NCBI GenBank assembly: GCA_011364965.1
Contig: RDOB01000004.1
Coordinates: 180,369 to 244,368, forward strand
DNA: 64,000 nucleotides
Direction of reading: 5' to 3'
Origin: Candidatus Heimdallarchaeota archaeon
GTDB taxonomy: Archaea; Asgardarchaeota; Heimdallarchaeia; Hodarchaeales; Hodarchaeaceae
Shown: one piece after another, positions 48,006 to 56,510 of the stretch
Numbering within the stretch: position 1 is the first letter of the stretch
How the letters are laid out: the number at the start of each line of letters is the position of its first letter
Notes under the pieces: generated by a model
Told to the model about the DNA's origin: nothing
Databases searched by the model: none
The model's input: only the letters and a program-made list of their open reading frames with translations
Position numbers and translations under genes: made by a program

Positions 48006-48518
48006 TCAACCCGATCTAACATGATTTCCGCATTTATTACAAAAAAATGCATTAGTAGGAAGACTAGCTCCACAAGAAGGACACTTTTTTCTGGAATCCA
48101 TAAAATTGGTCTCATTAACAAAGAACTTTTCTTTCTCTCGTTCATTAAAGGAAGTTAGAGGAGAAGAGGTTTTGAAAGGGGAAAAGGAGGAATTAGAGGA
48201 TTTAGAAGGGCCAAAATCAAAATTATTTGCATATTGACTTTTGTTTTGTTGAACCTCTAATTTGGAAGAGAGATCATTTAATTGAGCGTTAATCTTGCTA
48301 ATAGAATCAATGAGAGGACAAACGCTTGAATCAAATCCACCACCCAACCCCAATATTTCAGATTCAGGGCTAATTAACTTAAATCCAATTTTTAATCCCT
48401 CAGTACTCTCTGATATGGCAATCCCTTGTTCCAATAATCCACGAATGATTTCTTTAGCCGAATATCCGCGACCTTTGATGATAACTTGCCCCCGAATCTG
48501 ATCCAATGGATTATTCAT
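48006..48518 (-). CDS. Uncharacterised protein with C-terminal zinc ribbon
   Basis: Short coiled coil, Ser-rich linker, CPSCG...FCNKCG. Confidence 0.75.
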   Translation of the reverse strand: MNNPLDQIRGQVIIKGRGYSAKEIIRGLLEQGIAISESTEGLKIGFKLISPESEILGLGGGFDSSVCPLIDSISKINAQLNDLSSKLEVQQNKSQYANNFDFGPSKSSNSSFSPFKTSSPLTSFNEREKEKFFVNETNFMDSRKKCPSCGASLPTNAFFCNKCGNHVRSG

Positions 48519-51430: not shown

Positions 51431-51536
51431 TAGTGACGAGTTAAATGATGATTTGAATTTCTAAGTCTTTAAAACTTTCTTTCCAATAGAAGCATTTGAA
51501 AGCATTTAAACAAGTAATTTGGTCAGGGTTTTTATC

Positions 51537-54014
51537 GTGGGTGCAACGATTTCTATAATAGCAGAGAAACCATCTATTGCAAGATCAATAGTCCGTGCGT
51601 TCTCTATTACATTTAAATTAAAGTTCAAAGGCCACAAATCGAAATCTAGATTCAATTATGTCTATGAATCTGAAATTGACACACAAAAAATTGCTTTCAC
51701 TATTGAGAAAGACAAATATCGGTTGGGTAAGAGTGATGTTATTATCATTTCAAGTGTTACTGGTCATGTTCTTAATTTTGATTATCCCCCACCCTTTGAT
51801 AAAGAAACGAATTGGCAAAATTCTGATCCTTTGGATCTGATTGAGCTAGATCCAATTGAAGTGCCTATTCAGGAAAACATGATAGAACATATTCAGGATA
51901 TTGGCTATAAAACTGATGTAATCATCGTAGCTACGGATTGGGATGGGCATGGGGAAGCAATCGGACGCCAAATTGTAGAATTAATGACAAAAGTGAACAA
52001 GAAGATTCGTCATGGACGTATGCATTTCACTAGTACTAGCCCGAATGCTTTAAAGAACGCATTTGAGACTCAAACCAAGCTAAATTGGGATTGGATTAAA
52101 CAGGTTGATTCCTTAAGAAAACAGGATCTTCGAATGGGATCATCTCTTACTCGTTTTCTAACTGTTGGGATTCAGGATAAAGGAATTAGAAACCGAATTA
52201 TTTCTTATGGGCCTTGTCAAACTAGTGTTTTATGGTTAATTGCCAATCGTTATCAAGAAAATCAGGCTTTTCATCCCTCTAAATTCTGGAAAATGTCTAT
52301 TAAGTTGAATATATCTGATAATCCATTATTCTTGTACTGGAAAGGAAATCCTTCTGAAGATGAAGAAATTGTTGATTCTCTTATCAAAAAGATTGAAGAT
52401 AATCCTAAAGGAATAATTAGTGACTATAATGAGGAAAATGGATTTATTAAGAGGCCTATTCCTCTTGATACAGATACCCTTGAATCAGAATGTTCTCAGA
52501 TTTTTAGAATAAGTCCCAAATTAGTAGCTGATATTGCAGAGAAATTGTATAATAATGGATTTATCACATACCCTAGAACTGAGAGCTCTTATTATCTTGA
52601 GAAAGATTTAACAAAATTAACTGAAAAATTTCTTAATCATGAGGTATTTGGAAAGGTTGCTGAAGAATGTATTACATTAGGTGGGGTTAAAGATCCTTCT
52701 AAAGGGAGGTTTTCTAAAGACCATGAACCTATTAAGCCTGTAAAGGCGATTTCTCTTAGTGACGTTGAAAAAACCTTTTTCAAAACACCAAGAATTATCA
52801 CTAATGCTTGGAATATATATTCTTATATTGTTTGGCGATTTTTGGCAACAGTACACGTAAATGCGTCAATTGTGAACCAATATATTATGCTTAACGTAGT
52901 CTCGGAAGAATTCAATTCTGAAGGGAGGAAGATTATCGATCTAGGATTTTTTAAATTCTACCCATATAGAGAACTCAAGGTTGAAAGTATTCCTTACTTA
53001 AAGAAAGGTACTGAGCTGGTAGTTGAAGTCTTTAAGCATCATGGATATACCATCCCGCCTCCTCTTCTCTCTGAATCCGATCTAATTCGTGTGATGGCTG
53101 ACCTCAATCTCGGTACTGATGCTACGCGATCCACTCATATAGATACTGTTCAAAAGAGGAACTACACCTCAATTCAAGGTCCGAAACGAGTACTTGTACC
53201 CACAGCTTTGGGTTCAGCTTTATTTGAAGTATTAACCCAAAATGCAGAAGATCTTATTCTCCCTGAAATACGGGGAAAAGTAGAGGCCTGGACACAACAG
53301 ATTAGAGATCACGAGAAAACTCCTGAAGATGTCGACAAACTGGTTATTGAGTTAACTACGCGGGGACTTCAAAAACTAAAGAGTAATAGGGATGAGGTTT
53401 TCGACACACTTGTATCAAGCATTAAATCCATGACTGGAGTTGGAAATTATTACGGAAGATGTCCAGATTGTGAAGGAGAATTAGAATTACATCAAGGAAA
53501 AGAGGATTCAAGATTTCTAAAATGCACTAATCCATTATGTGATGCCAGCTTTCCACTTCCTAAGCGTGGCGCACTTTCTGTACTAGATCAGGAGTACCAT
53601 TGCCGAATATGCGCAAGCTCAACTCTCTTGGTTCAATCAAAAAGAGTTTATTGGTTTCTTTGTCCAGTGTGTTGGACACGAGAAGGAACAAAAGAAACAC
53701 CTTGGTTTTGTAGTGATTGCAATAGATCTGAATGCCCATTATCTGGATCTTGGAAACCCAGTACTTCCATTTGTAATCTTGGTGAATGTCCAGATTGTAA
53801 AGGGCCATTAACTCTTAATTATGAAGAAGAAAATACCCAAATCTTCTGTCAAAGTTGTAAACGAACTTGGAGAAGCCCTAATATTCGCCAAGGAGGATCA
53901 ATTACTCCTTCTATTGAGTGTTCAACCTGTGGCCGAAAAACATTGTCCGTTATCAAGCGAGGAAAAAAACCTTATCGACTTTGCGTATTTTGTTCTGTTT
54001 TTTTCTTTGATTAA
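51537..54014 (+). CDS. Type IA DNA topoisomerase (Topo III type) with extended Cys-rich zinc tail
   Basis: AEKPS.A, S..GH, ATD.D..GE.I, SYGPCQT, catalytic ITYPRT, DHEPI.P, LGT.ATR; nine Cys clusters at the C-terminus. Confidence 0.95.
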   Translation: MGATISIIAEKPSIARSIVRAFSITFKLKFKGHKSKSRFNYVYESEIDTQKIAFTIEKDKYRLGKSDVIIISSVTGHVLNFDYPPPFDKETNWQNSDPLDLIELDPIEVPIQENMIEHIQDIGYKTDVIIVATDWDGHGEAIGRQIVELMTKVNKKIRHGRMHFTSTSPNALKNAFETQTKLNWDWIKQVDSLRKQDLRMGSSLTRFLTVGIQDKGIRNRIISYGPCQTSVLWLIANRYQENQAFHPSKFWKMSIKLNISDNPLFLYWKGNPSEDEEIVDSLIKKIEDNPKGIISDYNEENGFIKRPIPLDTDTLESECSQIFRISPKLVADIAEKLYNNGFITYPRTESSYYLEKDLTKLTEKFLNHEVFGKVAEECITLGGVKDPSKGRFSKDHEPIKPVKAISLSDVEKTFFKTPRIITNAWNIYSYIVWRFLATVHVNASIVNQYIMLNVVSEEFNSEGRKIIDLGFFKFYPYRELKVESIPYLKKGTELVVEVFKHHGYTIPPPLLSESDLIRVMADLNLGTDATRSTHIDTVQKRNYTSIQGPKRVLVPTALGSALFEVLTQNAEDLILPEIRGKVEAWTQQIRDHEKTPEDVDKLVIELTTRGLQKLKSNRDEVFDTLVSSIKSMTGVGNYYGRCPDCEGELELHQGKEDSRFLKCTNPLCDASFPLPKRGALSVLDQEYHCRICASSTLLVQSKRVYWFLCPVCWTREGTKETPWFCSDCNRSECPLSGSWKPSTSICNLGECPDCKGPLTLNYEEENTQIFCQSCKRTWRSPNIRQGGSITPSIECSTCGRKTLSVIKRGKKPYRLCVFCSVFFFD

Positions 54015-54176: not shown

Positions 54177-56510
54177 TTGGTTATTTACTCGGTGAAAAAA
54201 GTGAGTGTGCAGAATAAACTAGGTAAAGACCCTGCTCCAAGTGCAGTACGCTACCTAGTATTAACTAGTGGCTTTACATCTTTATTAATGGCCATATCCT
54301 TCATTCCTGTTGTTCTTGGGACAAGTACCTTAAGTACAGAAGAATTAGATTTCTATCAAAATGCTATTCCTGCATTCTTCTTAATTTCTCTCTTCACTTT
54401 TGTTGAATGGTTTTTTTTAAGACGATCTCGCAAAATAACAGGTCCATATGGCTTTGCGATAGTTCTTGAAATTTTGAAGACCCTTTTATTTAACTTTGGA
54501 TCCATTCAATATACTGAAAGTGTCCCAAACGCTTCTTCATCATCATTCTTCTTGTTGCAGATCACTTCTTATGCTATTTTATTCTCGTTAGTATTAACTA
54601 AGGTTGCGAGAACCCAAATTGATCAAATTGCTCGACATGATTTAAGCAGGCAAGCATTAAACTTGCTTCCAACCTTTCTTGTCTTAGCTCTATTTTTAGG
54701 AACGTATGTTACAGAAATTACTGGATTAGGAATACCTCGACAAAGAAATACTTTTCCTGAAGAATATGAGCAGAAGGATATTAACTGGGATATGTTCAAC
54801 ACTCCTACTTGGGATGCAACTTATTTATTAGAAAATCTTCTTGATCAATTTACAGCAGGTCTTAGTGCACCTGATATACCCCTCTTTTATGTCACAAGTG
54901 GTCAAAATCCGAATCCGTTTGCTTACTGGAGGTTAGGAAGTTTAGAATTATATAAATACACTGGAAAAGCCCCTTATTCTACTGATTGGGATCCTACTGA
55001 TTCAACAAAGAGAGTTCTTACTCCTTACCAAACTGGTACTCCTTATTCTGAACCTTTACCAGAAGATTTACGAACAGCTCAATTTAATGTTCGTGTACCC
55101 TTAAACTATGAAGATTCGATTGCTGAAATCACTATTCATCCGAATTTTCCGAATTATTTGCCAGTAACTTGGAACGGGATGTACGGTTCCTATGTTGATA
55201 CAGATTCTTTTGCACTTAAAAGCGATGAAATGTCAACTGCACCATTCAGTGGTACAAACATCGCTACAACGACAAAAGAAACGAGAGAGGTTTTTCCAAA
55301 TGCTTTCGCATCTGATCTTCTGGGAGTGGATGCCAATATTCGGGTAAGTCAGACATCAAATACTTCTGGAACCTTACAATACACTGTTGATTATCAATTC
55401 CCTCAATATTCTGCAGCTGCAACTTTCTCATTAAATCGAACAGACAATGATTACCGGCAATGTGTGGATTCAGCAACTTGGTCTGCAATCAAGTCCATTT
55501 ACCTTCAATTACCAAATAAAACTGGTCAGCTTCCAAATCCATGTACGGTCTGGGGAGTGACTGGGATTGCGAATGATAATAATGATTACAGCGTTTGGGC
55601 TCCTTCTGTTTATGGAAATGCAACAGCCTGGAATGATCCCTCTCAAGATGTATTTGGTCAAGCTTTTGCCAACATGATGCAATTTCAAACACTGGGAGTA
55701 GAATTTGACCAAGAAATGTGGCTAGGGCAACAAGTTGGAGTTATGGATCATCCAGCAGAATATGAAGATTATAATGAATGGTTCTTCAGGCGAGGTGAGG
55801 GAACCTTGAAAGGTGTGTCTCTTCACTTTGCATCTTCTTACACAACAATTTGCCGTTTGCAGGGTATTCCTAGTAGAGTGGTAATTGGGTATGCAGGGGG
55901 AAATGATAGTTATTTCCCGTATAATATGATTTCATCCCGGTATTTACATGCGTGGTCGGAAGTCCTCATACCTGTTAAAGCGTATTATGATCCAGTTACT
56001 GACGATTTTGTACCTAACCATGTAGAATGGATTCCTTTTGACCCTCTTGTACCTCTTCCTGTTACTTTCATCCGAGGTGATTATGACCTTGAATCAGAGG
56101 GATTTGCACAAGCTTATCTAGAAGAACAACTCAATCCAGGATCAGTGCTGAGGCGTTGTGTTGTGAATAATAGCGCATTTGGAGAAGGCGCAACTATTAC
56201 TAATAATACTCGGATAAATGTCTCCGTCCGACTTATCTCCGTTATTCCTCCGGATCTTTGGATACCTATTCAGGGACAACAAATATCTTTTTATGTTGGA
56301 ACAGATGCTGAGAACATAACAGGAAATATATGGGAAACAGGTACATGGATTGGAAATGTTTCTACAAATTCAAGAGGAATTGCAACGCTTAATATGACAG
56401 TAAATGTCTTTCAGCTGGGGATACGTCCTGTAAAATTTTGGGCTGTTACAACGTATGCTGGACAGGTAAAATTAGCAGAATCCCTTACATATAATTTGAG
56501 TCTATTTTAA
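54177..56510 (+). CDS. Membrane-anchored transglutaminase-like (TgpA-type) protein
   Basis: About five N-terminal TMs, YWR motif, G.SLHFAS...R..GIPSRVV.GY, HAW.EV, W..FDP; many N-x-S/T sequons. Confidence 0.85.
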   Translation: MVIYSVKKVSVQNKLGKDPAPSAVRYLVLTSGFTSLLMAISFIPVVLGTSTLSTEELDFYQNAIPAFFLISLFTFVEWFFLRRSRKITGPYGFAIVLEILKTLLFNFGSIQYTESVPNASSSSFFLLQITSYAILFSLVLTKVARTQIDQIARHDLSRQALNLLPTFLVLALFLGTYVTEITGLGIPRQRNTFPEEYEQKDINWDMFNTPTWDATYLLENLLDQFTAGLSAPDIPLFYVTSGQNPNPFAYWRLGSLELYKYTGKAPYSTDWDPTDSTKRVLTPYQTGTPYSEPLPEDLRTAQFNVRVPLNYEDSIAEITIHPNFPNYLPVTWNGMYGSYVDTDSFALKSDEMSTAPFSGTNIATTTKETREVFPNAFASDLLGVDANIRVSQTSNTSGTLQYTVDYQFPQYSAAATFSLNRTDNDYRQCVDSATWSAIKSIYLQLPNKTGQLPNPCTVWGVTGIANDNNDYSVWAPSVYGNATAWNDPSQDVFGQAFANMMQFQTLGVEFDQEMWLGQQVGVMDHPAEYEDYNEWFFRRGEGTLKGVSLHFASSYTTICRLQGIPSRVVIGYAGGNDSYFPYNMISSRYLHAWSEVLIPVKAYYDPVTDDFVPNHVEWIPFDPLVPLPVTFIRGDYDLESEGFAQAYLEEQLNPGSVLRRCVVNNSAFGEGATITNNTRINVSVRLISVIPPDLWIPIQGQQISFYVGTDAENITGNIWETGTWIGNVSTNSRGIATLNMTVNVFQLGIRPVKFWAVTTYAGQVKLAESLTYNLSLF

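Follow-up and report, generated by a model that had tools for sequence, protein, structure and literature searches.

This report concerns a gene in a 64,000-nucleotide stretch of DNA (the window) from Candidatus Heimdallarchaeota archaeon (contig RDOB01000004.1, forward-strand positions 180,369 to 244,368). The gene encodes a type IA DNA topoisomerase of the Topo III class with a cysteine-rich C-terminal tail, which an initial annotation had described as resembling that of eukaryotic Top3beta. Public records already carry a DNA topoisomerase annotation for the gene product. Of the two possible starts, the GTG at 51537, which gives 825 amino acids (aa), is likelier than the TTG at 51519, because the copy of the protein in the databases (P0002, 100% identical) has 825 residues. 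The features of the gene and its catalytic part are as follows.

51519..54014, + strand: type IA DNA topoisomerase gene (Topo III class), a single reading frame, 831 codons long if translation starts at the TTG (51519).
51555..52031, + strand: Toprim domain, aa 13-171 (Pfam PF01751, E 3.3e-10).
51561-51575, + strand: Glu16-Lys17 in AEKPS, within Toprim, invariant in alignment A6.
51936-51956, + strand: acidic cluster D140-x-D142...E146 in DWDGHGE, within Toprim, invariant in alignment A6.
52083..53333, + strand: Topoisom_bac core, domains II-IV, aa 189-605 (Pfam PF01131, E 7.4e-84).
52203-52223, + strand: SYGPCQT core motif, aa 229-235, within Topoisom_bac.
52569-52586, + strand: catalytic Tyr351 in TYPRTES, aligned to ISYPRTET of TOP3B, with Y-P-R-T-E invariant in alignment A6.

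Both Pfam domains score well above their cut-offs (40.4 bits versus 23.1 for PF01751 and 282.6 bits versus 35.1 for PF01131). Topo III enzymes are marked by a catalytic tyrosine followed by proline, a Toprim glutamate followed by lysine, and a DxD acidic cluster (PMC10969213). All of these hallmarks are present in the window protein (E16-K17; D140, D142 and E146; Y351-P352), and E-K, DxD...E and Y-P-R-T-E are invariant across the 33 homologues of alignment A6. The full-length AlphaFold2 (AF2) model, with a predicted local distance difference test score (pLDDT) of 88.6 and a predicted template-modelling score (pTM) of 0.79, fits type IA structures. Its core superposes equally well on TOP3B (5gve; root-mean-square deviation (rmsd) 3.3 Å, TMt 0.89) and TOP3A (4cgy; rmsd 3.1 Å, TMt 0.88), and more poorly on Sulfolobus Topo III (6k8n; rmsd 5.6 Å, TMt 0.80). 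Judged by its sequence, the catalytic core is intact and of type IA. The SYGPCQT motif had initially been listed together with the tail at 53460-54014; the motif is real, but it lies upstream of those coordinates.

Downstream of the core, the tail is built from five cysteine modules (M1 to M5), each of which likely binds one zinc.

53460..53570, + strand: M1, four-cysteine (C4) zinc ribbon CPDC...CTNPLC then PLPKRG, aa 648-684; corresponds to zinc finger 1 of TOP3B, with a weak Zn_ribbon_Top1 match and a fold match to 9cah.
53601..53672, + strand: M2, C4 site CRIC...LCPVCW then a short helix, aa 695-718; corresponds to Zn1 of TOP3B (CPLD...CPYC, three Cys and Asp) and to CPxC...CPxCF of TOP3A.
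53709..53735, + strand: M3, CxxCxxxxC loop CSDCNRSEC, aa 731-739; matched in TOP3B by Zn2, whose three Cys lie on a coiled loop, and in TOP3A by CFxCxxxxCPL.
53787..53858, + strand: M4, C4 ribbon CPDC...CQSC, aa 757-780, with beta-strands in the AF2 model; matched in TOP3B by predicted zinc finger 4 and in TOP3A by the Zn_ribbon_Top1 module.
53919..53993, + strand: M5, C4 ribbon CSTC...CVFC with the basic stretch KRGKKPYR, aa 801-825; matched in TOP3B by predicted zinc finger 5 and in TOP3A by the final Cys pair of the five-module region.

All nine cysteine clusters that had been listed for this tail are found in the order given, namely CPDC (aa 648-651, nt 53460-53471), CTNPLC...PLPKRG (aa 669-684), CRIC (aa 695-698), LCPVC (aa 714-718), CSDCNRSEC (aa 731-739), GECPDC (aa 755-760), CQSC (aa 777-780), CSTC (aa 801-804) and CVFC (aa 822-825). 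The clusters span 53460..53993, and the tail, which begins at the first CPDC cysteine and runs up to the stop codon, occupies 53460..54014. It holds 20 cysteines in 196 residues, compared to 3 in the 635 residues of the core, and 19 of the tail cysteines are invariant or nearly so (at least 90%) across 30 Asgard homologues (alignment A1). This enrichment and conservation, together with a phmmer alignment to TOP3B through the first five clusters, indicate that the clusters are not due to chance. The sole Pfam match on the tail is a weak and generic Zn_ribbon_Top1 at M1. The protein ends in CVFCSVFFFD, with neither a GRF finger after M5 nor an arginine-glycine-glycine (RGG) box, whose absence had been noted correctly; PF06839 and PF00098 have no match in the window protein, and no Asgard homologue in alignment A1 has an RGG box. 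Most of the 830-879-aa Hodarchaeales relatives (P0040, P0044-P0067) carry an additional C-terminal CFxCx[HY]xC motif after M5 (columns 201-228 of alignment A1), possibly a sixth metal site, which is missing from the window protein and its close kin.

The likeness of this tail to that of TOP3B is extensive. The best match of the protein by phmmer among PDB chains is human TOP3B (9cah_A, E 5.1e-67), aligned through query residue 740, and the alignment pairs CPDC with CGKC, C....C..PLP..G with C..C..LP..G, CRIC with CPLD, LCPVC with LCPYC, and CSDCNRSEC with CNECTHPSC. For the remaining modules, an alignment of eukaryotic TOP3B tails (alignment A2) has invariant or nearly invariant Cys pairs at the positions matching M4 and M5. 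The C-terminal domain of TOP3B comprises a C4 finger, then Zn1, formed by three Cys and an Asp and accompanied by a short helix, and Zn2, in which a coiled loop supplies three Cys, followed by two further predicted C4 fingers and the RGG tail (PMC11743793). These zinc sites map one-to-one onto M1-M5. Alignment of the 30 Asgard tails with 19 eukaryotic TOP3B tails by hhalign gives a probability of 97.7% (E 2.4e-12, 177 columns), and the AF2 model of the tail (pLDDT 86) matches 9cah_A with a Foldseek probability of 1.00. When the model is superposed with VIA-align, residues 7-107 fall on residues 618-717 of TOP3B (Z 9.1, rmsd 2.5 Å over 96 residues), and 9cah_A is the sole PDB chain with a Z of at least 8. 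The tail is thus homologous to, and collinear with, the C-terminal domain of TOP3B, including its unusual CxxCxxxxC cluster, and M1-M3 are predicted to form a single rigid body resembling the portion of the human domain whose structure has been solved. The zinc sites of TOP3B vary within eukaryotes, as a subset of protist and metagenomic sequences (rows P0086, P0090, P0092, P0094, P0116 and P0118 of alignment A2) lack all three M3 cysteines (GKHWELEHPIY...), and in P0244 and P0193 the M2 site has kept a complete CxxC in place of CPLD.

The same tail is found in TOP3A, which it matches better than TOP3B. An exhaustive HMMER search of 1.84 billion representative sequences with alignment A1 returned 10 matches at E <=1e-30, all from the Hodarchaeales family, and a few weaker full-span matches, several of which are eukaryotic TOP3A. 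Their identity is supported by the Naegleria sequence P0242, which matches human TOP3A (4cgy) at E 1.7e-206 versus 3.3e-129 for TOP3B, and by the GRF or CCHC fingers of Rhodelphis P0207 and other TOP3A matches. All five modules recur in the protist TOP3A tails, where M2 has a complete CxxC and M3 reads CFxCxxxxCPL. By hhalign, the Asgard and TOP3A tails align at 99.5% (E 5.5e-23, 180 columns) and the TOP3A and TOP3B tails at 99.8% (E 3.5e-29, 190 columns). Used locally with hmmsearch, the hidden Markov model (HMM) of the Asgard tail scores TOP3A at 50-57 bits over nearly its full span and TOP3B at 22-34 bits, detecting 4 of 11 TOP3B sequences. The five-module order therefore does not define TOP3B. 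Since it is common to both eukaryotic TOP3 enzymes, the window protein is a cousin of the common ancestor of TOP3A and TOP3B and not an archaeal TOP3-beta.

Phylogenies of the core, calculated without tail columns under LG+C20 with posterior mean site frequencies from 75 rows (quick) and 49 rows (careful), point the same way. TOP3A and TOP3B are each recovered with a support of 100 and form one clade together (99 in the quick tree, 100/99 in the careful tree), and the Hodarchaeales sequences do not group with TOP3B. A larger clade comprising the Hodarchaeales family and the P0139 type, a 910-aa Asgard type (Asg910) and eukaryotic Top3 is supported at 98 (quick) and 100/98 (careful), and excludes Pyrobaculum, the Methanosarcinales type and a second Asgard paralogue clade. 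The approximately unbiased (AU) test rejects a clade of the Hodarchaeales family with TOP3B (difference in log-likelihood 51.1, p 0.0037). Published work links one eukaryotic Top3 clade to the Top3 of three Asgard groups, namely the Heimdall clan, Sifarchaeia and Wukongarchaeia (PMC12680538, Nat Ecol Evol 2025, Extended Data Fig. 4f), and our core trees reproduce that placement.

The distribution of the tail indicates which of its parts are old. The most similar proteins, at 54-68% identity, bear the names Hodarchaeales, Hodarchaeota or Heimdallarchaeota. In a tail-profile search across 400 genomes of the phylum, full-length matches (E 1e-70 to 1e-87; open reading frames (ORFs) of 825-879 aa) were confined to the genus of the window (20 of 21 genomes) and its order (2 of 2), and in most other Asgard genomes ORFs of 700-760 aa matched no more than the profile's first half (roughly positions 5-100). 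A signature for M2 and M3, CxxC...CxxC[WYF]...CxxCx(3-6)C, is present in all full-length proteins of the Hodarchaeales family. It also occurs in the 910-aa Asgard type, where M1-M2-M3 are followed by the M4-M5 unit twice; in the Topo III of Baldrarchaeia, which ends after M3; in the 850-aa type of another Asgard family (f24, 58% identity to P0189); and in a divergent Asgard topoisomerase of 913-933 aa (f21 type). The latter family (P0128, P0137, P0151, P0152 and P0169; locus L007 at G280:C95) matches Topoisom_bac weakly (E 1.7e-24) and Toprim not at all, and BLAST detects next to no similarity between it and the cores of other type IA enzymes. Its tail combines an M1-M5-like Cys set with one more CxxCxxxxC, and the family may represent a strongly derived or inactive topoisomerase.

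Outside Asgard archaea, the tails of Methanosarcinales Topo III (Methanolobus, Methanomethylovorans) are collinear with the Asgard tail by hhalign (99.1%, E 2e-18, 155 columns) over M1, an M3-like part, M4 and M5. They lack the second knuckle of M2, and the M2-M3 signature is found in 0 of 19. Widespread occurrence of the same tail in non-Asgard archaea had been named in advance as counting against the Top3beta reading; what these archaea have is a reduced, collinear form without the signature, and an M1-M3 signature is shared by many Asgard Topo III lineages, so this counts against that reading only in part. This collinearity means that a related tail is older than Asgard archaea, and the M2-M3 unit seems to be an Asgard trait, with eukaryotes having inherited all five modules. 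Given that the gene sits in an Asgard clade adjoining eukaryotic Top3, an archaeal, pre-eukaryotic origin of the tail plan is the best reading of these data. The proposal that the architecture predates eukaryotes thus holds for the tail plan, as the tail of an ancestral Top3, and fails for Top3beta specifically.

We therefore assign a probability of about 85% to the view that the window encodes a Hodarchaeales enzyme of the Topo III class, predicted to be functional, which belongs to an Asgard lineage that is the closest prokaryotic kin of eukaryotic Top3 and whose five-module tail predates the duplication into TOP3A and TOP3B. By inference from the family, E16, D140 and D142 of Toprim would hold Mg2+, and Tyr351 would cut one nucleic-acid strand to give a 5'-phosphotyrosine link; the expected role would be in decatenation and in resolving the intermediates of replication and recombination. 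The tail, if it acts as in TOP3B (PMC11743793), probably holds nucleic acid beside the cleavage site and raises activity. After the duplication, TOP3A would have gained its GRF and CCHC fingers, and TOP3B would have changed M2 to Cys3-Asp, added His in M3 and acquired the RGG box. The Hodarchaeales enzyme, which lacks the RGG box of TOP3B, may possibly have an RNA topoisomerase activity. A bolder proposal, which we consider unlikely, is that the single Top3 of the Asgard ancestor of eukaryotes already combined the full five-zinc tail with properties that TOP3A and TOP3B now divide between them, namely strand passage of both RNA and DNA and a tail surface for docking partners; if so, the Hodarchaeales enzyme would serve as a present-day proxy for eukaryotic Top3 as it was before the duplication.

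Several points weigh against this main reading. The order among the Hodarchaeales family, Asg910 and eukaryotes is supported at only 76/58. The Hodarchaeales core forms a long branch (0.74-0.83), and its BLAST similarity to the TOP3A and TOP3B cores is lower than that of the Methanosarcinales or Pyrobaculum cores, so its exact position may reflect evolutionary rate. The sample of TOP3A tails comprises 9 sequences, all protist or metagenomic, from the search of representatives. In the full-length model, superposition on the whole 9cah chain gives an rmsd of 15.3 Å, meaning that the pose of the tail differs from that in TOP3B-TDRD3 or is not predicted, and for this reason we make no claim of TOP3B-TDRD3-like docking. 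Zinc binding and the role of the tail are themselves inferred.

A further objection is that the gene or its tail could have reached Hodarchaeales from stem eukaryotes by ancient lateral transfer, which would make the likeness uninformative about the archaeal ancestor. The restriction of the full Hodarchaeales-type tail to one order among the 400 genomes, and the presence of a second, different Topo III in the same genome, speak for such a transfer. One paper is said to argue for transfers of this kind, from proto-eukaryotes to Heimdallarchaeia (PMC12395588). However, the Hodarchaeales clade is not nested in eukaryotes and groups with the Asgard P0139 type and Asg910, each with the same module plan. 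The M2-M3 signature extends to Baldrarchaeia and to the f24 and f21 types, and the reduced collinear tail of Methanosarcinales fits an old archaeal origin. Together these points render the transfer improbable.

We regard as more improbable still that the protein is an archaeal orthologue of Top3beta specifically, such that the alpha/beta split, or a beta architecture with its RNA role, would predate eukaryotes. This was the import of the initial annotation, and several rankings appear to favour it: 9cah is both the best PDB sequence match and the top fold match of the tail, and eukaryotic TOP3B provides the best full-length non-archaeal matches in a word-indexed search. However, the first rank of 9cah is explained by the fact that no other solved chain contains a Top3 tail, and chains limited to the core tie (TOP3B 1.8e-60, TOP3A 1.8e-59). 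The tail HMM and hhalign favour TOP3A, as described above, and both the monophyly of TOP3A and TOP3B and the AU test contradict a Hodarchaeales-TOP3B grouping. In addition, the features that mark TOP3B are absent. PF23546 (Zn_ribbon_TOP3B) gives no match at E up to 10 on P0001:620-831, whereas TOP3B controls score 59.8-73.6 bits. M2 is a C4 site (CRIC...LCPVC) without the CPLD that is invariant in the TOP3B alignment, M3 (CSDCNRSEC) lacks the His of the TOP3B form (CxxCxHPxCxH), and there is no RGG box.

Finally, a generic likeness of tandem zinc ribbons in place of whole-tail homology is barely credible: although Pfam sees only the weak Zn_ribbon_Top1 on M1, E. coli Topo I chains have better Foldseek E-values than 9cah and VIA-align matches M4-M5 to beta-propeller blades (Z 6-7, judged unspecific), the Foldseek matches to E. 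coli Topo I have an rmsd near 20 Å and its C-terminal domain aligns a single ribbon (41 columns, probability 55.6%), whereas the TOP3A, TOP3B and Asg910 tails are collinear over 168-180 columns (E 1e-12 to 1e-23), share the unusual M2 CPxC[WYF] and M3 CxxCxxxxC, and in M1-M3 superpose rigidly on 9cah.

Comparison with known enzymes places the window protein among its relatives. The Asgard Top3 lineage of PMC12680538 is the same family and has the same position beside eukaryotic Top3, and the accessible text of that paper does not describe the tail; the module-by-module match to TOP3A and TOP3B is added here and appears to be absent from the literature examined. Because the kinship of Asgard and eukaryotic Top3 has already been published, this gain is incremental. 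Human TOP3B (9cah, 5gve) resembles the window protein in its core (about 26% identity), in the order of its five Cys modules and in the CxxCxxxxC loop, and differs in the M2 and M3 ligands and the RGG box; its Pfam Zn_ribbon_TOP3B model misses M1 of the window protein, whose core is no nearer to TOP3B than to TOP3A. A search of the 87%-complete genome with PF08585 (RMI1_N_C) detected no TDRD3/RMI1-type partner, and a divergent partner of this type would escape it. Eukaryotic TOP3A (4cgy; P0242, P0207) shares the core, M1-M5, the C4 form of M2 and the CxxCxxxxCPL form of M3, and gives the best profile match to the Asgard tail; it continues after M5 with its extra GRF and CCHC fingers, whereas the archaeal protein stops right after M5. 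The Topo III of Methanosarcinales and Sulfolobus (6k8n) has a core of the same class; these cores lie outside the Asgard and eukaryote clade, and the Pyrobaculum enzymes compared have no such tail. The ribbons of E. coli topoisomerase I (Topo_C_ZnRpt, 4rul) are of the same general type as M1, and as M4 in TOP3A, but its tail has no M2-M3 unit and no common module order. In a 2022 survey, the TOP3B fingers were found to share no further similarity with Topo_C_ZnRpt or zf-GRF domains (PMC9369019).

The zinc tails of human TOP3A and TOP3B, which are poorly understood, can thus be traced to one ancestral five-module design that survives in Asgard archaea. This corrects the tempting claim of a pre-eukaryotic RNA topoisomerase "Top3beta", as the data indicate a pre-duplication relative. 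It also offers a small prokaryotic protein for studying the role of the tail in DNA or RNA binding near the cleavage site and in partner docking.

The genome from which the window derives measures 2.97 Mb. Genes around the topoisomerase encode a metallo-beta-lactamase (MBL) hydrolase and AAA_18 kinase-like, transglutaminase-like, PGK, AsnC-type, UbiA and GlmS-like proteins; these are unrelated housekeeping functions, and none of the neighbouring genes suggests a partner or an operon. Two of the surrounding genes are listed here.

54177-56510, + strand: protein of 777 aa that has a transglutaminase-like core and follows immediately downstream of the topoisomerase; no evident link.
48006-48518, - strand: 170-aa protein with a C-terminal double zinc ribbon, upstream of the topoisomerase; no evident link.

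The second type IA gene of this genome lies on contig C9 (L002:967-3285, - strand) and encodes 772 aa. Its tail has two clear Zn_ribbon_Top1 repeats and a third CxxC pair, which are generic ribbons, and the protein lies on a long branch (1.66) within the Asgard paralogue clade to which Baldrarchaeia Topo III also belongs. Two matches to the tail profile are found in 10 of the 21 genomes of the same genus. Among the representatives, a 669-aa topoisomerase-tail protein (P0216) has HTH_3 and LAGLIDADG_3 before only the last 70 positions of the Topoisom_bac model, which suggests either the insertion of an intein or homing endonuclease or a gene call that is fragmentary.

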